NCBI GenBank assembly: GCA_965200875.1
Contig: OZ241456.1
Location: 782,588-846,587, forward strand
Source: Bdellovibrionales bacterium
GTDB taxonomy: Bacteria > Bdellovibrionota > Bdellovibrionia > Bdellovibrionales > UBA1609
Length of the DNA: 64,000 nt
Reading direction: 5' to 3'
Position 1 is the first letter of the stretch. Every line of letters begins with the position of its first letter. The notes under the pieces are model-generated. The model saw only the letters and a program-made list of their open reading frames with translations. It did not search any database and was not told the DNA's origin. The position numbers were made by a program, and so were the translations under genes. This document shows positions 16,458 through 48,400 of this stretch, one piece after another.

Positions 16458-16643
16458 CTGAATATTATTAGAGTGCTTGTGTTGTCTGTTTCGCTGGGGC
16501 GAAATAGGCGTATTTGCTTTTTTTTAGCAGATGAAATACAAGCATAAAGTAACTCACATTTTTATAAATTTGTTCTTAAATTTTTAGAGCAAAAAAGAGT
16601 CTGAACTGAAATCATTCTTAGCAATTTCAGTCAGTTTTATTTT

Positions 16644-19632
<2,989 letters not shown>

Positions 19633-19654
19633 AACATTTTTCTGACTGAACGCT

Positions 19655-19711
19655 GTCATTCCCACGAAAGCATTGTTTCCGTGAAAGCGGGGGCAGAGCG
19701 AGCGGGAATCC
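19655..19711. repeat. palindromic repeat copy (gtcattccc...cgggaatcc arms with about 40-nt filler) in the 23S-5S spacer
   Basis: The arms are read directly and belong to the same family as the copies at 26.7, 31.5, 33, 34, 37.7, 38.2, 40.1 and 49.1 kb. Confidence 0.7.
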
Positions 19712-19804
19712 AGTAGTTTTAACGGAGAGATCATTTAGGTTTCTCCGGTCTTTGTTACACAAGGATTTTTTAGCTAAGAATGTTTTGAGTTACAGATAAA
19801 ATCA

Positions 19805-19826
19805 TCATTCCCGCTTTGAGCGGGAA
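19805..19826. repeat. palindromic repeat copy (tcattcccgctttgagcgggaac) in the 23S-5S spacer
   Basis: Read directly from the sequence. Confidence 0.7.
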
Positions 19827-19842
19827 CTTGTAAAAAGGAGAT

Positions 19843-19958
19843 GCTGGTGTCAATAGCGACGGGGCCACACCTGTTCCCATCCCGAACACAGAAGTTAAGC
19901 CCGTCAGCGGCGATGGTACTTGAGGGTTGACCCTCTGGGAGAGTAGCACGATACCAGC
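19843..19958 (+). rRNA. rrf: 5S ribosomal RNA
   Basis: 116 nt. It contains the conserved ccgaacacagaagttaagc loop and has paired termini gctggtgt/ataccagc followed by a T-run. Confidence 0.9.
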
Positions 19959-20170
19959 TTTTTTTATTGATACTTTAGAATTTTAAAATAATCTAATTAA
20001 CGGCCCATGAAAAACTCTGATTTTAAGTATTCTGCATGCAAAATTTTAAGGCTTGTCCAAGACTTCCATGCGCTTTGCCTCTCTCCACTGTGGTTTTGTT
20101 CATTCCACAAGTAACGGGGTTTTTTACGAGCAACTGTAACAGAATAAATCATTGACTTATAAAAATATAT

Positions 20171-27911: not shown

Positions 27912-29756
27912 GTGTCTGACAAATTATCATACAAATTATTGAAGATACGGCAAAATTTATCACTTTCTCAGGAGGAACTGGCAGAAGAGTTGGGCGTTTC
28001 TTTTGCTACAGTAAATCGGTGGGAAAACGGTCATTCCACTCCAAGAAGGGTTATAATGGAGACTATCCATAATCTATATAAAAGAGCACAGGAGGTGGAA
28101 ACACAGATGCTTGAATCTGAAGATCAAAAACCAAAAAAAGATGTTGTGCGGAGAAAAAGCCGAGGAGGTGGCCCGGGAACAGGTATTCTGGATAGTAGTT
28201 CTATGGAACAAATGCTTTGGAAAGTTGCCTGCGGAATTAGGGGTGAAAAAGACGCTCCAAAGTTTAAAAATTATCTTCTTCCCCTGTTATTTATCAAGCG
28301 ACTTTCTGATGTATTTGATGACGAGATTAATCGGCTTACGCAAAAGTTTGGCAGTCGCGAAAAAGCTTTAAAAATGCTGGAGCTGGATCCTTCTCTGGTT
28401 CGTTTTTACCTTTCGCCGGAGGCCAGATGGTCTGTTGTCAGTGGGCAGACTGACTTTAAATGGCCAAGAGAAAATAAACCTCGTTCTTTGGGAGAGCAAT
28501 TAACTTTAACTATGAGGGTTATTGTGAAAGACAACCCGGAGTTAAGGGGTGTTATTGATACTGAAGATTATAACGAAAGCAGAGGAGGGGAGCGGGAGAT
28601 AAGTGATTCTGCTTTAAGGAAAGTTATTGAAATTTTCTCCAATCCTAAATATCGTTTAGGGCTTAACGATGTGGAGCCTGATTTTTTAGGTCGAGCCTAC
28701 GAGTATCTTTTAAGGAAGTTTGCTGAAGGGCAGGGGCAAAGCTCAGGAGAGTTTTTTACTCCGCGTGAAGTGGGCTTTATTATGGCTAAAATTATGCAAC
28801 CCTTTGGAGGGGAAACTGCGTATGACTGCGCCTGCGGTTCTTTTGGCCTGTTGATAAAGCTTCAGCTTGTGTTAAGACAAACCAACCCTTTAAATAAAAT
28901 CCCTTTGCATTTGAGTGGTCAGGAGCTTAACGGCTCCAGTTTTGCCATTGCCTGTATGAACAGAATTATCCACGATATAGAAGGAAAAGTGAAGAGAGGC
29001 GACTCCATGCAAAACCCTAAGTTCAAAGACTCTACTGGCAGATTAAAAAAGTTCGATATTATTGTGGCCAATCCCATGTGGAATCAGCCCTTCAACAATT
29101 CTGTTTATGAAAACGATCCTTTTAATCGCTTTGAGTCCCAAGGTGGCATTACTTCTGGCAAAGCAGACTGGGCATGGCTTCAACACATACTGGCTTGTCT
29201 TAAAGAAAAAACAGGACGGGCAGGGGTGGTGCTGGATACTGGAGCAGTTACTCGAGGGAGTGGAAGTCAACACGAAGACAAGGAGAAAAAAATCAGAAAA
29301 TGGTTTGTGGATAATGACTTTATTGAAGGTGTGATACTTTTACCAGAAAATCTTTTTTACAATACCTCTTCAGCCGGCATTATTGTTTTTCTGAACAAAA
29401 ACAAACTGGAAGAAAGAAAAAATAAAATTATTTTATTAAATGCCAGTCAGGAATTTTACAAAGGAAAACCCAAGAATCATATTTCAGAGGAAGGGATTAA
29501 AAAAATAGCCACCGCCTTTATTAAAGGTGAAGAGGTGGATCGTTTTGTGAAGGTTATCACAAAAGAGTCCGTAAAGAAGAATGATTACAACCTCTCTCCT
29601 TCCCGATATATCAGTCTTTCGGAGGAAGCAGTGTATCGCCCCATCCCTCAAATTTTATCTGACTTAAACATGATCCAAAAATCAGCGGATAAAGTGGATC
29701 GGGATTTAGCTATGATTTTCCAAAAATTAAAGCCTAAACTTAAGGTGCAAAATTAG
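27912..29756 (+). CDS. hsdM: type I R-M methyltransferase subunit HsdM with N-terminal XRE-type HTH
   Basis: The HsdM_N motif LWKVACGIRGEKDAPKFKNYLLPLLFIKRLSDVF is present. Motif I is YDCACGSFGLL and motif IV is IVANPMWNQPF. The N-terminus LSQEELAEELGVSFATVNRWENG is an HTH. GGAGGA lies upstream of the GTG start. Confidence 0.88.
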   Translation: MSDKLSYKLLKIRQNLSLSQEELAEELGVSFATVNRWENGHSTPRRVIMETIHNLYKRAQEVETQMLESEDQKPKKDVVRRKSRGGGPGTGILDSSSMEQMLWKVACGIRGEKDAPKFKNYLLPLLFIKRLSDVFDDEINRLTQKFGSREKALKMLELDPSLVRFYLSPEARWSVVSGQTDFKWPRENKPRSLGEQLTLTMRVIVKDNPELRGVIDTEDYNESRGGEREISDSALRKVIEIFSNPKYRLGLNDVEPDFLGRAYEYLLRKFAEGQGQSSGEFFTPREVGFIMAKIMQPFGGETAYDCACGSFGLLIKLQLVLRQTNPLNKIPLHLSGQELNGSSFAIACMNRIIHDIEGKVKRGDSMQNPKFKDSTGRLKKFDIIVANPMWNQPFNNSVYENDPFNRFESQGGITSGKADWAWLQHILACLKEKTGRAGVVLDTGAVTRGSGSQHEDKEKKIRKWFVDNDFIEGVILLPENLFYNTSSAGIIVFLNKNKLEERKNKIILLNASQEFYKGKPKNHISEEGIKKIATAFIKGEEVDRFVKVITKESVKKNDYNLSPSRYISLSEEAVYRPIPQILSDLNMIQKSADKVDRDLAMIFQKLKPKLKVQN

Positions 29757-29844: not shown

Positions 29845-31500
29845 GTGAAAGTGGGCACACCACAGTCACAAAGAAAGCAAAAGCGTTTTCGCATAACTGA
29901 TAAAAAAATCAATAACCTGCTATTAATGGGGGAAGGGTATCGCATAGAGTTTAAACAATCTCTTGATAAGTCTCTTCTTGAAGAGGTTTGTGCTTTTGCC
30001 AATTCATCAGGTGGTTATATTTTAATAGGAGTGGCAGATGATAAAACCATTAAAGGAGTGAACATAAGCCATCGGCAACTTTCTCAAATCCAGGATATGT
30101 TGATCCGTTTACAACCTAAGTTGGATATCATTGTTACAGCCAAGAAAAACCTTATTGTTATTTGTGTTCCTGAAGGTTCTGAAAAACCTTATAGTTCTCC
30201 AAGGGGATTTTTTATGAGAGTGGGGGCAAATTCTCAAAAAATGACTAGGGATGAAATTATTGGTTTTTTTAAAAAAGAGGGTCGGATCCATTTTGAAGAG
30301 TTAATCAATGAAAAAGCAACCTTTGAAAAGGATTTTGATCCACAGGCTTTTAAAAAATTTTTAAAACTATCAGGGATCAACCCAACAATTAAACAGGAAA
30401 CTCTTTTACAAAATCTTGATTGTTTGACACCAGATAACAATCTTACAAACTTAGGGGTTTTGTTTTTTGCCAAGGACCTAGATTTCATTATGAATCATGC
30501 TCTTGTGGATTGTATTTTGTTTCGAGGTGTAAATAAAGTAAAGATTTTAGATAGAAAGCAATACAAAGGAAATATTATTGAAAATATTGAAAGTGCTTTG
30601 GCTTTTGTGCAAAGACATACAAATACAGAGTATGTGATTACAGGTAAACCCCAAAGGGAGGAAATTGCTGATTACCCTGAAACTGCTTTAAGGGAAGCTA
30701 TTGTCAATGCTGTTTGCCATAGAGATTATTTTGAAAAACGTTGCCATGTAGTTGTGGAAGTATTTTCTAACAGAGTGAAAATTGACAATCCGGGTGGTTT
30801 GCCAAGTGGGCTTAATCCAAAACAATTTGGAACAAAAAGTGTGCCACGAAATCTTTTTATTGCCTCAATGCTTCATAGAGCAAATTACATAGAACAAGCC
30901 GGAACAGGAATAAACCGCATAAAAGAAGCACTTGCTAATCATAAAAAGAAAGTGATTCTTGATATTCAATATAGTAAAGCCAGTACTTTTTACACTGTTG
31001 TTTTTAGAAAGAAAGCACTTACCAGCACTACCCAGAAACCGGCATTAGGCACTACCCAGAAAAGGTTATCCGGCACTACCCAGAAACCGGCATTAGGCAC
31101 TACCCAGAAAAGGTTATCCGGCACTACCCAGAAACCGGCATTAGGCACTACCCAGAAAAGGTTATCCGGCACTACCCAGAAACCGATATCAGGCACTACC
31201 CAGAAAAGGTTATCCGGTACTACCCAGAAAAGGTTATCCGGCACTACCCAGAAACCGGCATTAGGCACTACCCAGAAAAGGTTATCCGGTACTACCCAGA
31301 AACCGATATCAGGCACTACCCAGAAAATTTTGAATTTAATAAATAAAAACCCTGTTATCACTAGGCAAGAACTGGCGGAACAAATCGGCAACATTAGTGT
31401 AGATGGTATTAAGTACCATTTGGAACAGCTAAAAAAGAAAGGTTTTTTGAAAAGAATTGGTCCTGCTAAAGGTGGTCATTGGAAGGTTCTTAAAAAATGA
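29845..31500 (+). CDS. AlbA_2 (Schlafen-like) / HATPase_c_4 / wHTH protein with internal 8-aa tandem repeats
   Basis: Motifs EGYRIEFKQS...FANSSGGYILIGV and REAIVNAVCHRDY...VKIDNPGGLP are present. The C-terminus ITRQELAEQIGNISVDGIKYHLEQLKKKGFLKR is a wHTH. Confidence 0.75.
   Translation: MKVGTPQSQRKQKRFRITDKKINNLLLMGEGYRIEFKQSLDKSLLEEVCAFANSSGGYILIGVADDKTIKGVNISHRQLSQIQDMLIRLQPKLDIIVTAKKNLIVICVPEGSEKPYSSPRGFFMRVGANSQKMTRDEIIGFFKKEGRIHFEELINEKATFEKDFDPQAFKKFLKLSGINPTIKQETLLQNLDCLTPDNNLTNLGVLFFAKDLDFIMNHALVDCILFRGVNKVKILDRKQYKGNIIENIESALAFVQRHTNTEYVITGKPQREEIADYPETALREAIVNAVCHRDYFEKRCHVVVEVFSNRVKIDNPGGLPSGLNPKQFGTKSVPRNLFIASMLHRANYIEQAGTGINRIKEALANHKKKVILDIQYSKASTFYTVVFRKKALTSTTQKPALGTTQKRLSGTTQKPALGTTQKRLSGTTQKPALGTTQKRLSGTTQKPISGTTQKRLSGTTQKRLSGTTQKPALGTTQKRLSGTTQKPISGTTQKILNLINKNPVITRQELAEQIGNISVDGIKYHLEQLKKKGFLKRIGPAKGGHWKVLKK
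31024..31326 (+). repeat. about 12.5 x 24-bp tandem repeat (actacccagaaaccggcattaggc / actacccagaaaaggttatccggc, encodes GTTQK(PAL/RLS/PIS))
   Basis: Read directly. The repeat is in frame inside the AlbA_2 gene. Confidence 0.9.
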
Positions 31501-31514
31501 AACGAGCAGTTAGA

Positions 31515-31717
31515 CACGATGTCATTCCCGCCTTGAGCGGGAATCCCGCACTTAAACGGGAAGCCAAATCGTTGTCTTCCTGTCCCTTGCGATCGAGAAT
31601 CCAGCAACAGTTTTCATTTTGTTACGATGTCATTCCCGCCTTGAGCGGGAATCCCGCACTTAAACAGGAAGATAAATTGTTATCTTCCTGTCCCTTGCGG
31701 TCGAGAAGACAATCATC
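31515..31717 (+). repeat. two tandem copies (about 100-109 bp) of a compound palindromic element
   Basis: cgatgtcattcccgccttgagcgggaatcccgcacttaaac(g/a)ggaag...ttgtcttcctgtcccttgcg is repeated. The tracked ORF 31497-31745 is its translation artefact. Confidence 0.85.
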
Positions 31718-31887
31718 TAAAAATAGAAAGGAGATGTTAAAATGAGTGTAAACAAATGTGTTATATGGGGTACTTTACTAAAAACAGAACTGAAAAATTA
31801 AAAACTATCAAAGTATTATCTATTGATAAAAAGGATCAAGGAAATAACTTGTATAAAAATTCAAACAAATAAATAAAGGAGGCAAAC

Positions 31888-32331
31888 ATGAGTGAGCAAA
31901 ATAAAAAAGAAAGTGAAATCAATACGGATTTCTTAGATCGCTGTATTCGAGCTTTGGAAATTTCATACAATAAACTGCAAAAACTGTCCCCGGAAAATAT
32001 TGAATATGACATTTATCGCTCTGCTTGTGTTAAAGAGTTTGAAATTATTTTGGAGCAATGCGGGAAGTTGTTAAAAAAACGCCTGAGAGATTTTTTTCAT
32101 TCCAATAAAGCTGTTGATGATTTGGTATTTAAGGATCTTTTTCGTTACTCAGCAAAACATGGTTTGATGGATATTAAGAGCAGTGAACGCTGGTGTAAAT
32201 ATAGAGATAACAGAAATAACACAGCTCATGATTATGGAGTGGGTTTTGCCGAAGAAACTTTAAAAGCTCTATCCCCATTTATAACTGACGCGAAAGCCAT
32301 TGTTGATATTTTGAAAAAGAAAGAGACATAA
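31888..32331 (+). CDS. HEPN-domain protein (nucleotidyltransferase substrate-binding, HI0074-like)
   Basis: 147 aa, helical, with an R-x4-H motif (RNNTAHDYG). It lies directly upstream of an MNT-domain ORF. Confidence 0.7.
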   Translation: MSEQNKKESEINTDFLDRCIRALEISYNKLQKLSPENIEYDIYRSACVKEFEIILEQCGKLLKKRLRDFFHSNKAVDDLVFKDLFRYSAKHGLMDIKSSERWCKYRDNRNNTAHDYGVGFAEETLKALSPFITDAKAIVDILKKKET

Positions 32332-32425: not shown

Positions 32426-34306
32426 ATGATAAAAAATAAGACTAAAAAAGCAGGAGAAAGTTCAGTGTCTGAAAAAAAACTTCATTTGCCTGTTAAATAT
32501 AGAAAACAAATAAAGACTCTGTTTCGAAAGCATTTACCTGATGTGGATGTATGGGTTTACGGAAGTCGGGTTAACGGACAAAGCCACCCAGCTAGTGACT
32601 TAGATCTAGTGTTGCGTGCGCCGGGGTTAAAAAAGATTAATTCATTAAAACTATATGACTTAAAGGAAGCTTTAACAGAGTCCAATATTCCTTTTTTAGT
32701 GGAGGCAAGGGATTGGGCTTTACTTCCAAAAAGCTTTCATCAGGAAATTAAGCGTAGTTATATTATTTTAATTAAAGGCGAAAAAAAATATTACACTGAT
32801 GAGGTAAAAACAAAAAAAATATTGAGTAAAAAACCTTCTGTCAATTCCTCTGGGTCTGTAAATTTCTCTGAGTTTGTCACCACTTCCTCTGAGCCTATTA
32901 CTCCATCCGTGGGCAGGACTCCAAAACTTAAACAGGAAGCCAAATCATTGTCTTCCCGCTCCACCTCTTCAGGCGTTCCCGCCAAGCACGATGTTCATCC
33001 CCCTAGGCACGATGTCATTCCCGCGCAAGCGGGAATCCAGAAAAAGCTTTCATCTGAAAAAAAATGGAGGCTTTGTTCTATAAGAGAGGAGTATTCATCG
33101 ACACAACAAGTAGATAAATCATTGTCTTCCCGCTCCACCTCTTCAGGCGTTCCCGCCAAGCACGATGTTCATCCCCCTAGGCACGATGTCATTCCCGCGC
33201 AAGCGGGAATCCAGAAAAAGCTTTCATTTGAAAATGAGCAGAAGCTTGGTTCTGCACAATCTGAGTATACAGGAAACACAAAACAAACAGAGATCGGAGA
33301 AATACCAGAAGAATGGGATATTACTTCTATTAAAGAAGCTTATTTTTTTTCTAAAAAACCAAAAGAATTAAACTTAAAAAGCTTTTCACATATATCTTTT
33401 GTTCCCATGCAATTAATCCCGGATAATCAGCTATTTTTAAGTAATTATATAGAAAAGAAATGGAAACTACTGTCAAGTGGTGTATATTTTGAGGAAGGAG
33501 ATTTATTGTTATCAAAAATTACCCCTTCATTTGAAAATGGAAAACAATGTATTATCAGAAATATAAAAAATGGATTTGGAATTGCAACAACAGAGGTAAT
33601 TCCTATTAAAAGTAAAAAAGGGGTAAGTGATATAAGGTTTCTTTTTTATTATTTATTATTAAATAATATTCGCTCTACAATAGCAGGAAAAATGGAAGGA
33701 ACAACAGGAAAAAAACGAATACCTGTATATGTTATTAAAAACTTCAAAATCCCTCTTCCACCACTTGAGGAGCAAAAAAAGATTGTGGAGATTTTGTCTA
33801 AAATTCAAAAAGCGGTTGAGATACAAAATAAAATTATTAAAGTCACAAAAGAATTAAAACAAACAACTATGAAGTATCTTTTTACATATGGAACAAGAGG
33901 AAGTAAAAGCACTTTGGAGATACCAGAGTATGCTGACCCTTCCTGTCCCACCTCTTCAATCGTTTCATCTAAGCACGATGTTTATTCTTCTGAACTTGTC
34001 ACTCCTTCTGAGCCTGTCAATTCCTCTGAGTCTGTCATTCCCGCCGTGAGCATGACTCTAAAACTTAAGCATGAAGACAAATCGTTGTCTTCCCGTCCCT
34101 TGCAGTCGGGAATCAAGAAAAAACCTTCATCTGAAAGTGAGAAGGCATTTGGTTCTGCACAAGCGGATATATTGCAAAAGATAGATGATAAAATATCAGT
34201 ACATGAAAAGAAAAAGTCAACACTTGAAGAATTACTTAAAACCATGTTAAACCAGCTAATGACCGGAAAAATCCGTACTCATAGTGTGGATATACTGGAA
34301 AAATAA
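32426..34306 (+). CDS. hsdS: chimeric ORF: minimal nucleotidyltransferase (MNT) domain + repeat-derived linker + single-TRD HsdS
   Basis: Residues 1-120 carry the MNT motif VWVYGSRVNGQSHPASDLDLVL. Residues about 285-490 are an HsdS TRD plus conserved helix (EIPEEWDITSI..., LPPLEEQKKIVEILSKI). The C-terminus LEELLKTMLNQLMTGKIR is the second conserved helix. Three repeat blocks are in frame. Confidence 0.7.
   Translation: MIKNKTKKAGESSVSEKKLHLPVKYRKQIKTLFRKHLPDVDVWVYGSRVNGQSHPASDLDLVLRAPGLKKINSLKLYDLKEALTESNIPFLVEARDWALLPKSFHQEIKRSYIILIKGEKKYYTDEVKTKKILSKKPSVNSSGSVNFSEFVTTSSEPITPSVGRTPKLKQEAKSLSSRSTSSGVPAKHDVHPPRHDVIPAQAGIQKKLSSEKKWRLCSIREEYSSTQQVDKSLSSRSTSSGVPAKHDVHPPRHDVIPAQAGIQKKLSFENEQKLGSAQSEYTGNTKQTEIGEIPEEWDITSIKEAYFFSKKPKELNLKSFSHISFVPMQLIPDNQLFLSNYIEKKWKLLSSGVYFEEGDLLLSKITPSFENGKQCIIRNIKNGFGIATTEVIPIKSKKGVSDIRFLFYYLLLNNIRSTIAGKMEGTTGKKRIPVYVIKNFKIPLPPLEEQKKIVEILSKIQKAVEIQNKIIKVTKELKQTTMKYLFTYGTRGSKSTLEIPEYADPSCPTSSIVSSKHDVYSSELVTPSEPVNSSESVIPAVSMTLKLKHEDKSLSSRPLQSGIKKKPSSESEKAFGSAQADILQKIDDKISVHEKKKSTLEELLKTMLNQLMTGKIRTHSVDILEK
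32917..33227 (+). repeat. two copies of the compound palindromic element inside the MNT-HsdS ORF (112 bp identical: 32942-33053 and 33116-33227)
   Basis: Read directly. They translate as KSLSSRSTSSGVPAKHDVHPPRHDVIPAQAGIQKKLS. Confidence 0.85.
33941..34129 (+). repeat. third, diverged copy of the compound element plus a 15-bp minisatellite, at the position where HsdS TRD2 is expected
   Basis: Contains gtcattcccgccgtgagc...aaacttaagcatgaagacaaatcgttgtcttcccgtcccttgcagtcgggaatc. Confidence 0.75.
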
Positions 34307-34327: not shown

Positions 34328-35392
34328 ATGTTTAATATCGATCAGCAAATCTCATTAAGAACGGAATTAACTCCTCGTATATTGCCGAGAACCCAATATT
34401 TGGGAAGCAAACAGAAATTGGTAAAATGGATATACCAATGCTCTCCTAAAAATATAAAAACAGTTTTTGACGCATTTAGTGGCACATCTGCTGTAGGATA
34501 TCATTTTAAAACCCAAGGAAAAAAAGTTATAGCCAATGATTTTCTAAAGTTTAATTACCATATTGGAAAAGCCCTTATTGAAAATAAAAATATCATCTTG
34601 ACGAATAAAGATATTAAGTTGTTGTTGCAAAATAATAAAACCTCTGACTTCTTTATTGAAGAAAACTTTACTGGAGTATTTTTTGAAAAAGAACAGGCTC
34701 AATTTTTAGATAATTTTAGAGCCAATATTGATCTCTTAAATAATCAATATAAAAAATCTTTGGCTTTTACAATTATTAATAGAGCTTTAACAAAGAAGGT
34801 TTTGTTGGGCCATTTTGCACATTTAAAAGCTCTGGACTACAGCAAAAATCTTAAGCGTATTAAAAGAAACCCGGCTATTACTCGACCCATAAAAGATCTA
34901 TTTCTGGATCTGGTAAATGATTATAATCATGCGGTGTTTGATAATAAGCAACAAAACAAAATGTACTGTCAGGATATAATTGGTTTTATCAGGAATATAA
35001 AAGGTGTGGACTTGGTATATTTTGATCCTCCTTATTATGGCTGTCATCCAGATTATCAGGCTTTTTATCATTTCCTAGAAACTTATGTTGAGTACTGGAA
35101 AGAAAAACAATTTATTAATAAAACGAAACAATATTTCCCTAAGAAGAAAAGTGGCTTTACACAAAAAAATGAAATAGTGGAGTCATTTAAAAAACTATTT
35201 GAGAACAGTCAGGATATTCCATATTGGCTGATTTCTTACAATAGTAATAGCTACCCTGATAAAGAGACTATGACGAATATAATACAGCAATATAGAAAAA
35301 CTAAAGTTTTTGAAAATGAATATCAAAATCATTACGGAGGCAAAGGCTCTCGCAAAGGTACACGAGAATATTTGTTTTTATGTTATGAGTAA
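34328..35392 (+). CDS. D12-class N6-adenine DNA methyltransferase
   Basis: Motifs YLGSKQKLVKWI, FDAFSGTSAVG and YFDPPYYG are present, with C-terminal WLISYNSNS. It is a paralogue of the gene at 20171-21415. Confidence 0.7.
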   Translation: MFNIDQQISLRTELTPRILPRTQYLGSKQKLVKWIYQCSPKNIKTVFDAFSGTSAVGYHFKTQGKKVIANDFLKFNYHIGKALIENKNIILTNKDIKLLLQNNKTSDFFIEENFTGVFFEKEQAQFLDNFRANIDLLNNQYKKSLAFTIINRALTKKVLLGHFAHLKALDYSKNLKRIKRNPAITRPIKDLFLDLVNDYNHAVFDNKQQNKMYCQDIIGFIRNIKGVDLVYFDPPYYGCHPDYQAFYHFLETYVEYWKEKQFINKTKQYFPKKKSGFTQKNEIVESFKKLFENSQDIPYWLISYNSNSYPDKETMTNIIQQYRKTKVFENEYQNHYGGKGSRKGTREYLFLCYE

Positions 35393-35454: not shown

Positions 35455-37446
35455 ATGATGAAAATTAAAAAATTAGAGATTGAAAATTTTAAAGCTATAA
35501 AGCATCTGAAGTTGGATATTTTAAGTGACACTGTTTTAATTGCTGGCCCAAATGGCTGTGGCAAATCATGTATCTTTCATGCAATTAGATTATTAAAATC
35601 TGTTATAGGTGGATATCAGGATAATGAGTGGCATTTGTGGTTTAATGAATTTCAAATAAGTCCACAAAACCTTGGTCAGGATATTATTAAGTTATTTCAA
35701 ACAGATGACAGAAAATTACAAATTAAAGCCGATTTTGAATTAAGTGAAGAAGAAAAAACATTTTTAAAAAATGAAGGTAAAGATATGCTTGAATACCAGC
35801 TATGGAAAAGAGCATTACCTAATATTTTCAATACTCTAGATCAACAATACTATAAAGCTCGACCGTTAGGTGCACAATATGGTGATATAGCTAAAAAAAT
35901 AACCGAATCATCTAAGCAATTATTTGAAAATTTGAATAAAGAATTGTCTCAACCAAAAATTAATGTTTGTTTTGAAGCTGATGTAAACGGTGTTCTTACA
36001 ATATCTCCTACAAAATCATTACAGCTTGCATTTAGTTTTTTTGAAAAAGACTTAGGTATTATTGATTATCATGGCCCTGATAGGAATTACCATAAAGAAA
36101 CATTAAATAATATTAATTTAAATATTAAGACAAGTCACCAATCTATAAAGCAACACTCTTTATACAATTATACAAATAAGTATTCCAATGTGAAACAGGA
36201 AATGGTTGGAAGTTATATTAGGAGTTTGCTGACAAAAGAGGCTGGAGGAGTAGTGAACAGTTCAGATTCCAATTTAATTGATACCTTAAAAGAGTTGTTT
36301 AATGAGTTTTTTCCTGGAAAAGAGTTTTTAGATCCACAACCAAGTAAAACTGGTGGAATTGATTTTCCTGTAAAACTAAAAAATGGCACAACTCATGATA
36401 TCAATGATCTTAGTTCAGGTGAAAAAGAGGTGCTTTATGGTTATTTGAGATTAAGAAGTTCTACACCAAAAAATTCTATCATTATGATTGATGAACCAGA
36501 GCTTCATTTGAATCCAAAATTAATTTCTGGCCTACCACATTTTTACAAAAAACATTTAAGTGAAAAAATGGGTAATCAAATTTTACTAATAACTCATTCT
36601 GATGCTTTTCTTCGTGAAGCTATGAGAGAAAAGGATTATCAAGTTTATCATATAAAACCACCTTTTAGTATTTCATCTTATAAAGATAATCAAATTAAAG
36701 TAGTCAATGTAAATAATGATTTGGAAGAAGCTATTATTGATTTAGTTGGTGATTTAGCCACTTATTCACCAGATAAAAAAAATGTGTTGTTGGAAGGAGA
36801 AAACTCAGAGTTTGATTCAAAAATGATTACAAAGTTATTTCCTGAATTTTCAGAAAAAGTAAACTTATTATCTGCTGGCTCAAAGCATAAAGTAATCAGA
36901 CTACATGAATTATTGGAAAAAGCAAATCAAGAAGGGCAACTACATACAAAATTTTTTTCAATTATAGATAAGGATCTACATGATGATAACACTATAAGAT
37001 CAATAAAGGCATTTCAGTGGGATGTTTATCATATAGAAAATTATTTATTAAATGAAGACTACTTACTAAAATCTGTAAATGGATTGCTATTGCAAAAACA
37101 ATGGAGTATTGAAGAAATAAACGATTTATTATTAAAATGTGCAAAAGAATCTATAGGTGTCCTTATTAAAGATATTCTAACTAATGAGGTATATAAAAAA
37201 ACTCCTAATCTTAAAAAAATAGGATGTGATCCAGAAAATTTAAATATCTCTATAGAGATTTATAACTCTCTTCAAAGAAAAATAGACAATCTTTCTAAAA
37301 TTCCAACAAAGGATTATTTGCAAAAATTACAAGATATTGAAAAGCAAAAACGAAAAGAATTTAATCAGGCTTTTTGCAATTACACATGGAAGGAAAAAGT
37401 GAAAGGGAGAGATGTATTAAAAAGATTAGTGGCAACAATTAATTAG
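35455..37446 (+). CDS. fused ABC/SMC-type ATPase + DUF4435-like Toprim domain (OLD/PARIS-like)
   Basis: Walker A is LIAGPNGCGKS, the signature is LSSGEKE and Walker B is IIMIDEPELHLNP. The C-terminal half carries NVLLEGENSEFD, FFSIIDKDLH and VYHIENYLL. Confidence 0.65.
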   Translation: MMKIKKLEIENFKAIKHLKLDILSDTVLIAGPNGCGKSCIFHAIRLLKSVIGGYQDNEWHLWFNEFQISPQNLGQDIIKLFQTDDRKLQIKADFELSEEEKTFLKNEGKDMLEYQLWKRALPNIFNTLDQQYYKARPLGAQYGDIAKKITESSKQLFENLNKELSQPKINVCFEADVNGVLTISPTKSLQLAFSFFEKDLGIIDYHGPDRNYHKETLNNINLNIKTSHQSIKQHSLYNYTNKYSNVKQEMVGSYIRSLLTKEAGGVVNSSDSNLIDTLKELFNEFFPGKEFLDPQPSKTGGIDFPVKLKNGTTHDINDLSSGEKEVLYGYLRLRSSTPKNSIIMIDEPELHLNPKLISGLPHFYKKHLSEKMGNQILLITHSDAFLREAMREKDYQVYHIKPPFSISSYKDNQIKVVNVNNDLEEAIIDLVGDLATYSPDKKNVLLEGENSEFDSKMITKLFPEFSEKVNLLSAGSKHKVIRLHELLEKANQEGQLHTKFFSIIDKDLHDDNTIRSIKAFQWDVYHIENYLLNEDYLLKSVNGLLLQKQWSIEEINDLLLKCAKESIGVLIKDILTNEVYKKTPNLKKIGCDPENLNISIEIYNSLQRKIDNLSKIPTKDYLQKLQDIEKQKRKEFNQAFCNYTWKEKVKGRDVLKRLVATIN

Positions 37447-37619: not shown

Positions 37620-37790
37620 AGTGGTTGAAAGCCTTTTTTGCTTTCTGTTTAGGTGCTGGATTCCCGCCTGCGCTGGAATGACGTGTATGGAGCGAGCATA
37701 GGTGCAAGTTGTAAGGTGATGATAGGATATACATAGGCTTGTGAATGGCTGAAAGCCCTTTGGGCTTTCAGTTTTGGGAACATACATGAA
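37620..37790. repeat. compound intergenic repeat: hairpin gaaagcc/ggctttc + ggattcccgcctgcgctggaatgac core + second hairpin ctgaaagccc/gggctttcag
   Basis: Read directly. Related copies lie at 38170-38231 and 40045-40110. Confidence 0.8.
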
Positions 37791-37859: not shown

Positions 37860-38156
37860 GTGAAGAAAGAGAAACAAGCATTTGTTTATATAATGGCAAA
37901 TAAAAGAAATGGAACAATTTATACAGGAGTGACAAATGATTTATCAAATCGTGTGTGGCAACATAAACAGAATGTAATAGAAGGTTTTACAAAAAAGTAC
38001 GGTGTTCATCATTTGGTTTATTTTGAACAACATGGAAGTATGTACTCAGCTATTGAACGAGAGAAACAAATAAAAAAATGGTGCAGGCAATGGAAATTAA
38101 AACTCATAGAAAAAGAAAATCCAAGTTGGAGTGACTTATATGATTCTATCATTTAA
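37860..38156 (+). CDS. GIY-YIG nuclease-family small protein
   Basis: 98 aa. Motifs FVYIMANKRNGTIYTGVTNDLSNRVWQHK and EREKQIKKW are present. The start is GTG. Confidence 0.85.
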   Translation: MKKEKQAFVYIMANKRNGTIYTGVTNDLSNRVWQHKQNVIEGFTKKYGVHHLVYFEQHGSMYSAIEREKQIKKWCRQWKLKLIEKENPSWSDLYDSII

Positions 38157-38169
38157 TGTTTATATGTAT

Positions 38170-38231
38170 CGTATTGAAAGCCTTTTTGGCTTTTAGTTTA
38201 GATACTGGATTCCCGCCTGCGCGGGAATGAC
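38170..38231. repeat. compound intergenic repeat copy (hairpin + ggattcccgcctgcgcgggaatgac)
   Basis: Read directly from the sequence. Confidence 0.8.
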
Positions 38232-38273
38232 GTATATGAAATAATGATAACTTAAAAAAACAGGAGGAGTAAA

Positions 38274-39461
38274 ATGCAGATAACGCAGATAAAGTTAAAA
38301 AATTTTCGGGCTTTTCAAAATGTGGAGATGCGGGATATTCCGCACTTCGTGGTTCTTGTTGGTGCTAATGGCACAGGCAAATCCACTTTGTTTTCCGTTT
38401 TTGGTTTTCTTCGTGACGCAATGACCTCTAATGTGACCACCGCTCTTTCAAAATTGGGAGGAAGTCGGGGTTTTAAAGAGGTGGTCAGCAGAAACTCAAC
38501 AGGTCCTATTGAGATTGAAATCAAGTTTCGGGAAAAACCCAAAAGTCAGTTGGTTACTTATGCCTTGTGTATTGCTGAAAAAAATGGTCGCGCGATAGTG
38601 GAACGGGAGATCTTAAAATATCGCCGAGGTACCAGGGGAGCACCTTGGAAGTTTTTAGATTTTTCATGCGGGAAAGGCCAAGCTGTTACCAATGAGATGG
38701 ATGATGTAAAAGATGAAAAAGACCTTCAGAGAGAAGAACAAAACCTTAAATCTCCTGATTTGCTGGCCATAAAGGGACTAGCCCAGTTTGAGCGATTTCC
38801 TGCTGTAGTGGCTCTTGGCAATTTGATTGAGCGTTGGCATATCTCTGACTTCCATATCAGCAAAGCGCGCCCGGAACAAGAATCGGGGTATGCGGAACAC
38901 TTGTCACGCTCAGGAGAAAACTTGTCCTTGGTGGTGGAATATCTTTATCAAAATCATAGAAATGTTTTTGACACTATTATCAAACAATTGAGTAAAAGAG
39001 TGCCTGGCATTACCAAAGTTGATTCCAAACAAACAGAAGAAGGACGTATTTTATTGAAATTTCAGGATGGGGATTTTGAAGATCCGTTTCTAGCTCGTTA
39101 TGTTTCTGACGGTACAATTAAAATGCTGGCCTATCTGATTTTACTTTATGACCCTGCTCCTCATCCTCTGCTGTGCGTGGAAGAACCGGAAAATCAACTT
39201 TATCACAGTTTGCTGGAAGAATTAGCAGAGGAATTTCGCTCTTATGCCAACAAAGGCGGGCAGGTATTTGTCTCCACTCACTCCCCGGATTTTTTAAATT
39301 CTGTCAAACTGGAAGAAGTATTTTGGCTGGAAAAGCAATCCGGCTATACAGTTGTCAAACGAGCTATGGCTAATGAGCAAGTTTCCGCTTATATGAAACA
39401 AGGGGATAAAATGGGAAATCTTTGGACACAGGGTTTTTTTACAGGAGCAGATCCTAAATGA
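38274..39461 (+). CDS. AAA_15/AAA_21-type ABC ATPase
   Basis: Motifs IKLKNFRAF, VLVGANGTGKST, YVSDGTIKMLAYL, LLCVEEPENQLYH and VSTHSPDF are present. Confidence 0.8.
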   Translation: MQITQIKLKNFRAFQNVEMRDIPHFVVLVGANGTGKSTLFSVFGFLRDAMTSNVTTALSKLGGSRGFKEVVSRNSTGPIEIEIKFREKPKSQLVTYALCIAEKNGRAIVEREILKYRRGTRGAPWKFLDFSCGKGQAVTNEMDDVKDEKDLQREEQNLKSPDLLAIKGLAQFERFPAVVALGNLIERWHISDFHISKARPEQESGYAEHLSRSGENLSLVVEYLYQNHRNVFDTIIKQLSKRVPGITKVDSKQTEEGRILLKFQDGDFEDPFLARYVSDGTIKMLAYLILLYDPAPHPLLCVEEPENQLYHSLLEELAEEFRSYANKGGQVFVSTHSPDFLNSVKLEEVFWLEKQSGYTVVKRAMANEQVSAYMKQGDKMGNLWTQGFFTGADPK

Positions 39462-40027
39462 AAAATCTTGTTTTCTTTCTGGAAGGATATTCTGAAAAAG
39501 TAATGCTGGAAGGTCTGTTATCGCGTTTGTTGCCTGAAAATGTTTCTCCTGTTTATTGTGTGTTTAAAGGGAAAAAAGACTTGGAAAAGAATCTTTTTAA
39601 AAAAATACAGGGATGGCAAAAACCTGAAAGTGCTTTCATAGTTTTGCTCGACCAAGATCAGGAAAACTGTAAATCTCTTAAGAAAAGAATACTTGAAATA
39701 TGCAAACAGTGTGAAAATTCAGTAACCCCTTTAAAGTATATTATTCGCGTAGCTTGCCGTGAACTGGAAAGCTGGTATTTTGGTGATTTAGAAGCTGTTG
39801 GAAAAGCATTTAATAAGCCAAAATTGCCAGATCGATATAAGAATAAAAAACAATATAAAAATCCAGACAAAATTCAAAATCCTGCGAAAGAACTTGAGAA
39901 GATTACCAATAAAGAATATCAAAAAATTTCTGGTTCTAGAGCTATTGGTTCTTTACTTTCCTGGGAAAATAATAAATCACGTAGCTTTAAAGTGTTTATC
40001 GAAGGTATCAAGGATCTGGTTCAATGA
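39458..40027 (+). CDS. DUF4276-like (Toprim-like) protein
   Basis: 189 aa. The N-terminus LVFFLEGYSEKVML has a Toprim-like Glu. VLLDQDQE is DxD-like and RELESWYFGD is also present. A 4-nt overlap couples it to the upstream ATPase. Confidence 0.55.
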   Translation: MKNLVFFLEGYSEKVMLEGLLSRLLPENVSPVYCVFKGKKDLEKNLFKKIQGWQKPESAFIVLLDQDQENCKSLKKRILEICKQCENSVTPLKYIIRVACRELESWYFGDLEAVGKAFNKPKLPDRYKNKKQYKNPDKIQNPAKELEKITNKEYQKISGSRAIGSLLSWENNKSRSFKVFIEGIKDLVQ

Positions 40028-40044
40028 AAAATGATTCTCATTTT

Positions 40045-40110
40045 TCAGTTTAGGTGCTGGATTCCCGCCTGTGCGGGAATGACTTGTATGGAGGGAGAGC
40101 GAGCATGGAT
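40045..40110. repeat. compound intergenic repeat copy (ggattcccgcctgtgcgggaatgac + gtatggagggagagcgagcatgg tail)
   Basis: Read directly from the sequence. Confidence 0.8.
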
Positions 40111-40604
40111 GTGAGCTTTTTCAGGCTTTAATGAGTATTTATGTGCCAAATTGGAAGGTACTGGATAAAGAGCTTAACTTTATGCAAAAAGAGCAACAAC
40201 AAGCAGAGCTTTGTTAATGTATTGACCTGCTCTCAGTGTTGTTCTTTCCCACAAAAGATGTTTGTTGTTCTTTTCACTAAAATTTTAGTTCAGATATTTT
40301 TTAATCCATGAGAGAGTAGGGATTTATATCCTGCTTGATAATTTTTTAGGAATTTTATCTTCAAAACTACATGAAAATAGCTTGGTAGTGCAGAAAAAAC
40401 ATTAAAATATTTTTTAACTCACTGTGTTGTGTCAAAGTTGGGAAAATCCAAAATGTAGTATATCCTTTATTTATATTACTACCTTTATTTATATTACTAA
40501 GTGTCAATATTGACGCGTTGTCTGATTGATCCTTTGGAAAAAAGAATCTAAGATTAGGTAAATTTTTAATGGTTTAAGTTATGAAGAAACTAATGGTGTA
40601 AATT

Positions 40605-45455: not shown

Positions 45456-48400
45456 ATGAAAAAACATACAGAGAAATGGATCCAATTATCTGAAAGTTAC
45501 AATCGATCAACAAATTTGGAGTTGGATTTTAAGGATGTCAGTCGGCTAAAGGATATTTATCTGTCTTCCAAGTTTCAAGAAGGATTGAAAGAGGTTTTTA
45601 CCTCTATCTTGGAAACAAACTCAAAACACCGGGTGAGAGTATTAAGTGGTTCTCCAGGACTTGGAAAATCCACCTTTGCTTTACTAATTGCGCAAATACT
45701 TTCCAAAAAACACCCGAAGTTTATTGGCCATTTAATGAACCAAGCCAATAAAAAATTGCAAATTGATTTTAATCAATTTCAAAAATCAAGAAAGACAAAA
45801 TTGTTACCGGTTTTTATTAATGGATATGAAGGAGAAATTGAAGAAGTATTTAAACATAATTTAAAAAAAGCATTATCAGAAAATAGCCTGTCTCTTAAAG
45901 GGGTTTTCAAAGACACTTTGAAATTTTACAAAGCCAGTTTAAACACTTTAAAAACAAAGGGTTATAGTGGCATATTTGTTATTTATGATGAGTTTGGGAA
46001 ATATCTGGAAAAAGCTTTGCACAGTCCTACAGATTTAAACATTCAGTTTTTGCAAAACTTTGCGGAATTTTGCGATCGCTCAGGAGAAACACAATGTCAC
46101 CTGATGCTTATTACTCACCTGTCTGTTTCTCAATATGCTAGTCAGCTTCCTATTAATGTTCAGCAGGAATGGGCGAAAGTTGAAGGCCGATTTCAGGAAT
46201 CTGCTTTTTACGATAAAAGCGCGGATTATTACAAAATGATTTCTGCTGTTTTTGAAAAAAATATTTCAGAAACTCATCCTTCTATAGCTGAAAAATATAA
46301 AACTTACATTAATAAATATCTGGTAAATTTTTCCAAAGACGCATTGGAAGGTTTTATAGATTTAAAGAACATAAAATCCATTATTCTTAATTGTTTCCCT
46401 TTGCATCCAAGTGTTCTGGCTCTTTTGCCTCATCTCTCCAAAAAAGTGGCTCAAAATGAAAGAACCCTTTACACTTTTTTAACTCGCGATGAAGATAACT
46501 CTCTTAAAAGGTTTTTACAGGAAAAAACACAAATCACACTTCTTATGCCATATCATTTGTATAAGTATTTTCAACCCCTTATCGGAAAAGATATTGGTAT
46601 AGGAGGTACTTATAAAATTCAACTTATGGTGGAAGAAGCTTTTAAATATGTTAGTAAAACTGATGAAGTTTCAAAACAAATTATCAGTCTTATGGCTCTT
46701 TGCTCTGTTATTAAAGACACTCACTTTGCACCTTTGACAGAAGCCTTTATTATATCTTGTTTCAACCAAGATTATTCAAGAACAAATATTAAAAAATCCT
46801 TAACTTATCTGAGAAAGAAAAAAGTAATTTTCTATAACAAAAACACAAAACAATATCTTTTACAGGAAGGTTCTCCTGTTGATATTGACGAGGAAATAGC
46901 CAAACTGAAAAATATCACTCTTACCGGGAAAAGTCTTGTGCAGGTTTTAAAAAGATATTTTAAAACAGACTTTATTACTCCTAAAAAATATAATTTTGAA
47001 AACGCCATAACTCGATTTTATAGAACAGAAATTATTTCTGTTGAAGAGTTAAAAAATTTAAGCAAAAAAAACAACATTGATTTTTACAGAGAAGATGGCA
47101 GATTATTTTATGTAATCCCCTTTAGTCATGATGAACTAGTTTACGCAAGAAGGGAAATTCAGAAAATTTCATCTCCATTAACTGTTTTTTTACTACCAAA
47201 ACAATTTATAGAATGCAGAAAAGATATTGAAGAGTTAAACGCTGTTGATTGTCTATATAACAATAAGGAGATTTTATCAGCCAGCTCGTTGGTAAAAAAA
47301 GAACTGGATCGTCATAAAGAAATATTACTTTCTTCTATAGATTCGCTTTTAAAGCCACTTATTGGTTATATGGGTCTTTCAGCAGATGTTATATATCCGA
47401 CTGAGCTTTCAGAGCAAAAGGAAATAACTCACTTTAAAGATCTGGAAAGGTTTTTGGGTACGTTTTTTACAAAAGAGTACAATAAATATGTGAGTTTTAA
47501 CCTAGAATACATGAATCGTCACAGTGTTTCAGGAAGCATCACTTTGGGTCGAAAGAAATTTTTGGACACTTTAAGATTTTATAAAGAAAAACCGAAGGGG
47601 GATATAACTTGCTTGATTAAAGGCCACGGGCCAGATTATGTGATTTTAGATACCATGTTAAGACTTTCCAGTTTTAAATACCATTCTGTGAAAAATATTT
47701 ATGAAGTTTCTTCAAAGTCAGAGTATTATAAATTTTTTAAGGAGTATAAAAAAATCCTCTCCCAACACCCTCAAGGCATTAGTGCCAGTATGTTGTTGGA
47801 TATACTGGTATCTCCTCCGTATGGTTTGCGCTTAGGTGTGATTCCGGTATTTATTTCCTTGGCAGACTTATGTTTTAAACAACCCGTAAGCCATTATTTT
47901 GATTCCGCTTATGTTAAAGATCTGGATGGAGATCATTATGATCTTTTAATGAAGTATCCAAAAAAAACTACTATTCACTACACTCCGATAGATAATAAAA
48001 AACAAAAATTTTTGGATGGACTGGGAAAAATATTTAAAGCTGATGGTGTGTCTGTGCGATCTGTTATTTCTGCTTTAGTAAAATGGAGAAGAGGTATCCC
48101 TGAGTCCACAAAATTTTCTTCCGGTTTGTCTCAAGAGGGGAGAAAATTGCTTATTCAGATTGACTCTTCTAAACAGCCGGATCATCTGCTTTTTACCGGG
48201 ATTCCTTATTGTTTTGAAAAAACAAATGTTGGTAGAGTAAACCTTCAAGGTACAAAAGATATTTTATTAAAGTTGAAAATAACAAAAAAAGAAATTGACG
48301 CAATTTATAGAAATTTGCTGTTGAAGATGGAAAAAGAGCTTTCTAGTTTTATCTCGTTTATAAATGAGCAATGTTTAAACCATTCCGCAAGTAAAACCTT

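Follow-up and report, generated by a model that had tools for sequence, protein, structure and literature searches.

A minimal nucleotidyltransferase fused to the HsdS specificity subunit in a type I restriction-modification locus: most likely a degenerating gene with hairpin repeats in its reading frame

The stretch of 64,000 nucleotides analysed here (contig OZ241456.1 of a Bdellovibrionales bacterium, positions 782,588 to 846,587; hereafter the window, numbered from its own first letter) contains, within a type I restriction-modification (R-M) and defence island recognised by Pfam annotation, an open reading frame (ORF) in which a minimal nucleotidyltransferase (MNT) domain is joined to HsdS, the type I specificity subunit. 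The family of MNT::HsdS fusions to which this gene belongs is small, is confined to one uncultured lineage and is apparently undescribed in the literature searched, where no description of such a fusion was found; its member in the window is, most likely, degenerating. Since repeat-free fusions are found in an identical operon context, the fusion pre-dates the palindromic repeats that the gene contains and is independent of them, contrary to an earlier note on this DNA in which the repeats were held to have welded the two domains together: when orthologous loci are compared, fusions with short linkers lacking any repeat turn up in just such an operon. The gene singled out in that note is real and unusual, but the causal account given of it was mistaken. 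The explanation that we regard as probable, from comparison of the sequences, is that of a native fusion carrying passenger repeats of the Neisseria Transformation Sequence (NTS) type, in a decaying copy that would be kept by its antitoxin role.

Architecture of the fusion gene

The gene and its parts, including the target-recognition domains (TRDs) and the conserved helices CR1 and CR2 of HsdS, are laid out as follows (L001 and P0013, to which identities refer, are a related contig and a related fusion protein described below):

32426..34306, + strand: MNT::HsdS fusion ORF without TRD2 (626 aa, ATG start, one uninterrupted frame)
32474..32776, + strand: MNT (HI0073-like) domain (Pfam, PDB, Foldseek; 80% nt identity to L001)
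32777..33277, + strand: interdomain linker of repeat DNA (GC content 0.45, against 0.28-0.34 in the flanks)
33278..33763, + strand: TRD1 of HsdS, opening with the conserved lead-in TKQTEIGEIPEEW (Pfam; 69% aa identity to the TRD type of P0013)
33764..33892, + strand: central conserved helix CR1 (EEQKKIVEIL...MKYLFTYG; 77% nt identity to CR1 of L001)
33929..34162, + strand: repeat-derived insert at the CR1/TRD2 junction (TRD2 absent; deletion scar at 34162/34163)
34163..34306, + strand: distal conserved helix CR2 (ADILQKIDDKISVHEKKK...MTGKIR; 85% nt identity to CR2 of L001)

That the frame runs from MNT into HsdS without a stop codon, as the earlier note had stated, is borne out: in the single frame Pfam recognises an NTP_transf_2/Polbeta/MTPAP-like match (aa 10-117) and one Methylase_S match (PF01420, aa 336-472), the latter at 49.7 bits for a Pfam cutoff of 22. 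By base composition, 626 codons without a stop have a chance of ~1e-20, and the 336 stop-free codons 3' of the linker one of ~2e-11. The insertions do keep the frame, the one in use being the sole open frame across the repeats (in the other two, the linker has 5 and 13 stops and the second insert 3 and 9), and the reported lack of an ATG near the expected start of hsdS extends to the alternative start codons: no in-frame ATG, GTG or TTG occurs between 33122 and 33407, hence no start close to the expected N-terminus of HsdS. The order of domains is MNT, a linker of 160 aa derived from repeats, TRD1, CR1, a 78-aa insert of the same derivation and CR2; the gene therefore departs from the usual HsdS plan of two TRDs and two helices, both helices being present, as the earlier note had seen, with a single TRD. 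Whether a normal TRD2 might lie at 33.9-34.1 kb was checked; Pfam shows one stretch of Methylase_S, and the segment is the repeat-derived insert, predicted to be disordered.

The MNT domain carries the catalytic nucleotidyltransferase motif GS-x(9-13)-DxD (G46 S47 ... D58 L D60); by sequence, its PDB match is 1no5 (E = 8e-15) and, by structure, Foldseek aligns the N-terminal domain to the same entry, HI0073, with a template modelling (TM) score of 0.89, MntA antitoxins being matched as well. In the AF2 model of the fusion protein (82 sequences; mean predicted local distance difference test, pLDDT, 71; predicted TM score, pTM, 0.56), pLDDT exceeds 90 in the MNT domain (aa 20-120), in TRD1 (~280-445, where it reaches 95-98) and in the CR1 (447-487) and CR2 (570-613) helices, and falls below 50 in both repeat-derived segments (aa 125-273 and 492-562), which are predicted to be disordered; the model has the final ~10 residues of the repeat tail prolong the CR2 helix at its N-terminal end. 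Only ~200 columns, that is, half an HsdS, are aligned by Foldseek to the HsdS structures 1yf2, 3okg, 5ybb and 2y7c.

A family of MNT::HsdS fusions

Homologues were searched over 5.8 billion proteins and the best 120 were scanned for MNT and Methylase_S Pfam domains; the two occur together in at least 15 distinct proteins, the window protein included. An identical protein is on record (P0001, on a contig of 1.83 Mb), and the fusion-bearing relatives are metagenome-assembled genomes (MAGs) of low GC content labelled 'Bdellovibrionales'. Seven fusions have a short repeat-free linker followed by a complete TRD1-CR1-TRD2-CR2 body, namely P0013 (540 aa), P0010, P0011, P0014, P0015, P0018 (whose sequence ends early at the C-terminus) and P0038; in the alignment, G46, S47, D58 and D60 of the MNT domain are invariant in 13 fusions.

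Genomic context was taken from four relatives, L001 (OZ241967.1, 'MAG: Bdellovibrionales bacterium', 2.31 Mb) and the ENA assemblies L038, L042 and L043, and in all four the gene order is the same: hsdM with a helix-turn-helix (HTH) domain, variable genes, HEPN, MNT::hsdS, variable cargo, hsdR and ygjP. The lengths of the linkers vary and yet keep the frame in independent genomes, which argues that the fusion is translated and selected. Outside the seven repeat-free fusions, P0024, P0027 and P0046 carry repeat blocks at the MNT/TRD1 linker and at the CR1/TRD2 junction, as the window gene does, and have kept TRD2.

Stand-alone MNT genes (~108-114 aa, 74-80% identical), preceded by a HEPN gene, are also encoded in related genomes (P0121, P0123, L039), and all of those found lie outside R-M loci; the MNT-only search that listed them left out known fusions and provides no measure of the fused fraction. 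In a related assembly (L040:7573-9115), MNT subtypes B and A are themselves fused in that order (P0122, 214 aa), with a HEPN gene on each side, which shows that these MNT modules are prone to fusion. As to the wider distribution, the plasmids of PLSDB yielded no match over 80% or more of P0013, and the MNT part is included in only ~5 of the best 150 among 1.84 billion cluster representatives.

Repeats within the reading frame

The two identical 112-bp copies described in the earlier note (32942-33053 and 33116-33227) match each other at every position (100%) over exactly 112 nt and cease to do so on either side; they lie 174 nt (58 codons) apart, each starting in frame 0, and are the cores of tandem 174-nt units at 32931-33104 and 33105-33278, the wider unit being 88% identical over 167 nt (32931-33097 vs 33105-33271) with diverged 3' tails. 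Beside these two units the linker holds a diverged composite element and an array of an 18-nt minisatellite (32838-32877). A third copy after the central helix is likewise real, as a diverged composite at ~33939-34167 with repeat alignments at 70-82%; the minisatellite of this second insert, given earlier as 15 bp, proves to have a period of 18 nt (33984-34041, 3.3 copies) and is related to that of the linker. The second insert is built of this minisatellite, a composite element, a decayed hairpin and a 'GSAQ' tail and, taken together, the repeats of the ORF are mosaics of the 18-nt minisatellite, the 108-nt composite found intergenically at 31505 and an NTS hairpin with its 3' tail. The intergenic composites, whose type recurs, diverged, within the fusion ORF, are placed as follows:

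31505..31720, + strand: two tandem 108-nt composite hairpin elements, intergenic, 5' of the HEPN gene, each with the core TCATTCCCGCCTTGAGCGGGAATC (cores at 31522 and 31630; DNA fold z = -3.5)

The hairpin core CATTCCCGCnnnnGCGGGAATC occurs at 7 sites of the window (13 matches with both strands counted) for 0.01 expected, and at gathering thresholds Rfam gives no match in the repeat regions. A search for homologues of the 50-aa peptide encoded by the repeat gave no candidates either, an outcome without weight since it missed even the window protein. A derivation of the repeat tail (KKLSFENEQKLGSAQ) from the PPLxEQKxI motif that ends TRDs was considered and rejected, the DNA alignment scoring only 16. 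Phase variation through repeat number was also rejected, the unit being 58 codons within a disordered linker. The related suggestion of the earlier note, a repeat-driven switch of specificity, is unlikely for the same kind of reason: since 174 nt is a multiple of three and the linker is predicted to be disordered, a change in copy number alters neither the frame nor the spacing of the TRDs.

Judged by its sequence, the repeat family is the one already described as NTS/dRS3 or Ssn-related motif (SRM) hairpins, here in what would be an undescribed intragenic role. The 28-nt NTS, CGTCATTCCCGCGMAVGCGGGAATCYRG, takes in dRS3 (Chenal et al. 2025, PMC11893778); its hairpin is bound, and cut in single-stranded DNA, by SsnA, a GIY-YIG protein of ~100 aa (CDD cd10448), and an ssn gene typically has the motif on both sides, in the arrangement NTS-ssnA-NTS (PMC11893778). 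Membership is defined in that work by at most one mismatch to CGTCATTCCCGCGMAVGCGGGAATCYRG, a consensus derived from Neisseria; copies flanking genes are described and intragenic ones are unmentioned (PMC11893778). The consensus has five sites in the window with 0-2 mismatches, for none expected in shuffled sequences:

33013-33040, + strand: NTS hairpin copy 1 in the fusion ORF (TGTCATTCCCGCGCAAGCGGGAATCCAG), 1 mismatch
33187-33214, + strand: NTS hairpin copy 2 in the fusion ORF, identical to copy 1, 1 mismatch
37656-37683, - strand: NTS hairpin 5' of the GIY-YIG gene, 1 mismatch
38205-38232, - strand: NTS hairpin 3' of the GIY-YIG gene, exact match to the consensus (0 mismatches)
40057-40084, - strand: NTS hairpin on the hsdR deletion junction, 2 mismatches
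37860..38156, + strand: 98-aa single-domain GIY-YIG gene, candidate ssnA homologue (Pfam PF01541, E = 7e-16)

The conserved flanks (5' GTCA, 3' CCAG) are present in the NTS copies, and DNA folding gives their 8-bp stem (z = -4.6 for the copy at 38205). The GIY-YIG gene starts 3.5 kb downstream of the fusion ORF, between two NTS copies, and Y10, Y21 and E68 of its product are spaced as Y6, Y17 and E64 of SsnA, the residues mutated in PMC11893778; its pairing with the hairpins as an Ssn system is put forward because of the motif, the NTS-gene-NTS architecture and this spacing of residues. Sequence searches of the PDB returned spurious WD40 matches and a weak UPF0213 match, and NCBIfam a sub-threshold intron-endonuclease match only. 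L001 keeps just the first 20 codons of the GIY-YIG gene (L001:11999-12058).

The hairpins are found in a second coding sequence of the lineage. The hsdR genes of L001 and L042 contain, at one common site (L001:16207-16234, L042:15332-15359), an NTS-derived in-frame insert reading '...NIFNWK-VDSRLRGND...', with a protein ~50 aa longer than those of L038 and L043; given in-frame NTS copies both in hsdS and in the hsdR of relatives, the colonisation of coding sequence is a general habit in this lineage. Elsewhere in the window, an NTS-like hairpin (TCATTCCCTCACAAGCGGGAATC) at 49079-49101 makes up the final codons of a P-loop ORF of 1220 aa (45456-49118), adjoining a DUF4007 gene and two pentapeptide-repeat genes, and appears to supply the C-terminal tail and the stop of that ORF.

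Loss of TRD2 and of hsdR

L001 shares with the window a syntenic arrangement of hsdM, HEPN, MNT, CR1, CR2 and the AAA_21/DUF4276 pair, at nt identities of 77-85%. Within the fusion gene, homology to L001 restarts exactly at GCGGATATATTG (34163, 'ADILQKID'), right where the repeat tail ...GGTTCTGCACAA ends; at the corresponding point, L001 has a TRD2 ending in ...PPLGEQKEI. Because homology restarts at 34163 after the repeat tail, TRD2 is taken to have been lost by an in-frame deletion with repeat DNA on its left side; because repeat-bearing relatives keep TRD2, this loss was a separate and secondary event. The earlier statement that a repeat occupies the place of TRD2 therefore holds in part: an insert does lie at the CR1/TRD2 junction and TRD2 is absent, but relatives with repeats at that junction retain the domain, and it was a separate deletion, ending at 34163, that removed it.

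The relatives also show what the two junctions have in common. In the L042 gene, a 203-nt block with a +/- hairpin pair is present in frame at both, the blocks sharing 91% identity at a distance of 906 nt; in L001, both junctions contain a common 69-nt piece that includes a 'GSGSAQ' tail. Recombination between two intragenic repeat blocks was considered as the cause of the loss and rejected, as it would remove TRD1-CR1 instead of TRD2; microhomology at the right breakpoint of the deletion does not go beyond a weak GA(G)TATA.

No hsdR was found in the 64-kb window by tblastn at E <= 1, and the gene is present in all four syntenic relatives. Where the relatives have DUF4276, hsdR and ygjP, the window has a C-terminal fragment of ygjP (40071-40205) abutting the NTS copy at 40057-40084, which suggests that a repeat-associated deletion removed the nuclease gene. 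By the sequence of the locus, the nuclease is lost, at least locally, and restriction from the window locus is most likely lost as well.

The surrounding defence island

The genes about the fusion are the following:

27912..29756, + strand: hsdM with N-terminal HTH_3 (HTH_3 + HsdM_N + N6_Mtase; Pfam), intact, 614 aa
29845-31500: AlbA_2/Schlafen-like gene (Pfam)
31888..32331, + strand: HEPN toxin gene of HI0074/NTase_sub_bind type (PF08780, E = 4e-15; PDB 1jog, HI0074, E = 2.5e-8)
34328-35392: D12-class adenine methyltransferase, in the cargo slot after hsdS
35455-37446: AAA_15/DUF4435 ATPase, in the same slot
38274-40027: AAA_21 ATPase and DUF4276 gene (Pfam)
40071..40205, + strand: ygjP C-terminal fragment (tblastn); ygjP follows hsdR in relatives

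The HEPN gene, immediately upstream of the fusion, has an intact motif, RNNTAHDY (Rx4HxY), in which R109, N110, H114 and Y116 do not vary among 6 orthologues. HsdM is 77% identical in aa to that of L038 and its gene ~79% identical in nt to that of L001; the HTH-HsdM architecture recurs in L038, L042 and L043, and the HTH_3 domain, which is of Xre type and conserved throughout the clade, may give the operon a regulator of its own.

The remaining genes differ among the loci or bear repeats of their own. In the AlbA_2/Schlafen-like ORF (29845-31500), an in-frame 24/48-nt tandem array at 31025-31327 (12.6 copies of 24 nt, encoding the peptide GTTQKPALGTTQKRLS) separates the HATPase_c_4 and winged-helix domains, and belongs to a repeat family distinct from NTS. 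The AAA_15/DUF4435 ATPase gives weak, sub-threshold NCBIfam matches to retron-effector, PtuA and MADS3 ATPases, and the cargo slot after hsdS is filled in L001 by an unrelated gene of 578 aa. Farther away in the window, a 23S-5S rRNA pair without a 16S gene upstream (16642-19959) represents a split rRNA operon, consistent with a reduced or host-associated genome; ankyrin and leucine-rich repeat (LRR) proteins are encoded on related contigs (L039, L043).

Proposed explanation and alternatives

In the explanation regarded above as probable, the fusion would be ancestral and under selection, the repeats being later passengers. NTS/SRM repeats would have settled, always in the one open frame, at two structurally permissive junctions, each just upstream of a TRD; later the locus would have decayed, TRD2 being deleted in frame, from the repeat tail to the first CR2 codon, and hsdR being lost by a deletion whose scar now carries an NTS. 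The HEPN protein is presumed to be an RNase toxin which, by analogy with type VII pairs, the MNT domain would neutralise by nucleotidylation (AMPylation) of the Rx4HxY tyrosine. Since this HEPN, intact and adjacent, has no other MNT to draw on than the N-terminus of the fusion ORF, this ORF would have to stay expressed and open, and the need for antitoxin would amount to an addiction effect that stabilises hsdS. In the intact relatives, the tether could tie release of the toxin to the loss of the R-M complex or to its sequestration, much as with PrrC, a mode of action that has been proposed for HEPN genes embedded in R-M loci (PMC3710099); that HsdS tolerates an N-terminal fusion is known from an engineered HsdM-HsdS (PMC6158711). 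What is left in the window protein, TRD1-CR1-linker-CR2, may still bind HsdM.

Several observations weigh against this explanation, in whole or in part. The NCBIfam MntA equivalog scores 25 bits for a cutoff of 60, indicating membership at the level of the family, and the HI0074 score is also below cutoff; moreover, the order HEPN then MNT reverses that of most HEPN-MNT pairs, and for these two reasons neutralisation of the AMPylation type is only inferred. Two MNT subtypes, A (that of the window) and B, are found fused to HsdS, so that the history of the fusion, as read from the sequences, would comprise either one event and a domain swap or two events. Were the MNT domain by itself sufficient, a stop behind it would be tolerated, and yet some 500 codons past it have stayed open in sequence of 28-35% GC; TRD1, CR1 and CR2 look undamaged and hsdM is intact. 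So long an open frame, with TRD1 and the helices undamaged, points either to some remaining HsdS function or to a deletion of very recent date. Finally, an hsdR may exist in the part of the 1.83-Mb genome beyond the window, and the placement of the GIY-YIG gene in the Ssn clade (cd10448) is, from its sequence, that of a candidate only.

It is on the state of HsdS that the most serious alternative turns: the protein without TRD2 would work with HsdM as an orphan type I methyltransferase, either as a dimer, like an engineered half-HsdS, reading a palindromic bipartite site, or with a single TRD and CR1 paired with CR2 in the same molecule, MNT riding along. We hold this to be possible, though rather doubtful. 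The exactly in-frame deletion of TRD2, the intact TRD1, CR1 and CR2 (pLDDT >90), the intact hsdM and the length of the stop-free frame past the linker speak for it, as does the finding that half-HsdS cut behind CR1 forms dimers that methylate a palindrome (PMC6158711). Published working half subunits, however, have one helix and not two, and a CR1/CR2 hairpin formed in cis would compete with dimerisation; the deletion of hsdR and of part of ygjP implies that selection for R-M is at least relaxed, and an architecture without TRD2 is found in none of the 14 other fusions. A more ambitious proposal, which we consider unlikely, is that of a toxin-antitoxin/R-M chimera, a covalent counterpart of PrrC/EcoprrI, firing HEPN when the type I complex is lost, degraded or sequestered by anti-restriction proteins of phages; the in-frame NTS hairpins bracketing each TRD and the neighbouring Ssn nuclease would in addition provide recombination or cleavage signals for the exchange and deletion of TRD cassettes and of hsdR.

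The other alternatives concern the origin and the reality of the single frame. Two products might be made, the full fusion and an HsdS re-initiated at the in-frame TTG at 32948, with the repeats supplying a new hsdS start; this TTG lies in the first repeat unit with a Shine-Dalgarno-like AGGAAG (32934-32939) 8 nt upstream, but the TTG at 33122 in the second unit has no such motif, the repeat-free homologues have no candidate start in the linker save an occasional Met in 'GEMPEDW' and, no stop codon intervening, a product containing MNT would be made anyway, all of which leaves re-initiation distinctly improbable. Very improbable, in turn, is the origin favoured by the earlier note, in which palindromic elements fused separate MNT and hsdS genes by erasing a stop and a start while another element displaced TRD2: the stand-alone MNT genes, 74-80% identical and likewise preceded by HEPN, and a window linker consisting almost wholly of repeat DNA are what one would cite for it, whereas the seven repeat-free fusions, P0013/L038 among them, share the operon context, P0024, P0027 and P0046 carry repeats and still keep TRD2, and the stand-alone genes found are not in R-M loci. 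The least probable alternative of all, so slight as to be nearly negligible, is an artefact of sequencing or assembly, by which the tandem 174-nt units or the absence of TRD2 or of a stop would be errors; a perfect 112-nt duplicate is the kind of feature that assemblers mishandle, and the identifiable relatives are metagenome assemblies, but the fusion, with in-frame repeats at matching junctions, also appears in four other genomes that were assembled independently, the identical protein is on record from the 1.83-Mb contig, and the homology on either side of each junction is in one frame.

Relation to known systems

The MNT GS...DxD and HEPN Rx4HxY motifs of the window are those of HI0073/HI0074 of Haemophilus influenzae and of HepT/MntA of Shewanella oneidensis, that is, of type VII toxin-antitoxin systems. 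The window differs from these pairs in having HEPN before MNT, where in known pairs MNT is 'almost always' 5' (PMC3710099), and in the covalent joining of MNT to HsdS; the HEPN census reports fusions of HEPN to restriction subunits and none of MNT to HsdS (PMC3710099). With PrrC/EcoprrI, in which a HEPN anticodon nuclease is held latent by a type Ic R-M system, it shares the presence of a HEPN RNase gene within a type I operon; PrrC, however, combines an ABC-ATPase with HEPN and is kept silent through non-covalent contact with the R-M complex, whereas in the window it is the antitoxin domain that is fused to HsdS, and the functional link would follow by analogy. Half-size HsdS proteins (EcoDXXI, truncations of EcoR124I, the phase-variable NgoAV and the engineered 'M1/2S', Bower et al. 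2018) comprise one TRD and a helix, and can dimerise and recognise palindromes (PMC6158711); the window protein, unlike these, keeps both helices, with a 78-aa insert predicted to be disordered and an N-terminal MNT domain, at a locus without hsdR.

As regards the repeats, the likeness to the NTS/SsnA system of Neisseria extends to the 28-nt consensus, the folding hairpin, the NTS-gene-NTS arrangement around a GIY-YIG gene of ~100 aa, the Y/Y/E spacing and the clustering near particular genes; the differences are the host, a low-GC lineage labelled 'Bdellovibrionales', and the translation of the hairpins in hsdS and in the hsdR of relatives. The comparison made in the earlier note with the Rickettsia palindromic elements (RPEs) is apt as a description of behaviour, these too being short palindromic repeats found in frame within genes at sites that tolerate extra peptide; sequence family and host are different, so that the likeness is one of in-frame insertion only. 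Motif-rich genomes are enriched in symbionts, Rickettsia and Wolbachia among them (PMC11893778), and since Rickettsia is listed there among the SRM-rich genomes, a deeper link between NTS and RPEs is possible.

Implications

The combination of HEPN-MNT, type I HsdS and NTS/Ssn hairpins is one for which no description was found in the literature searched. So far, NTS hairpins have been described as flanking genes in Neisseria and in other symbionts; here they occur in hsdS, in hsdR and on deletion scars and, being in frame, they link the newly discovered Ssn system to the phenomenon of 'selfish DNA inside genes' known from Rickettsia. If the proposed explanation is true, an antitoxin fused to a type I specificity subunit would provide a concrete case for the proposed coupling of restriction to abortive infection; the window locus itself would show how a defence island may decay while an addictive module keeps one of its ORFs open.

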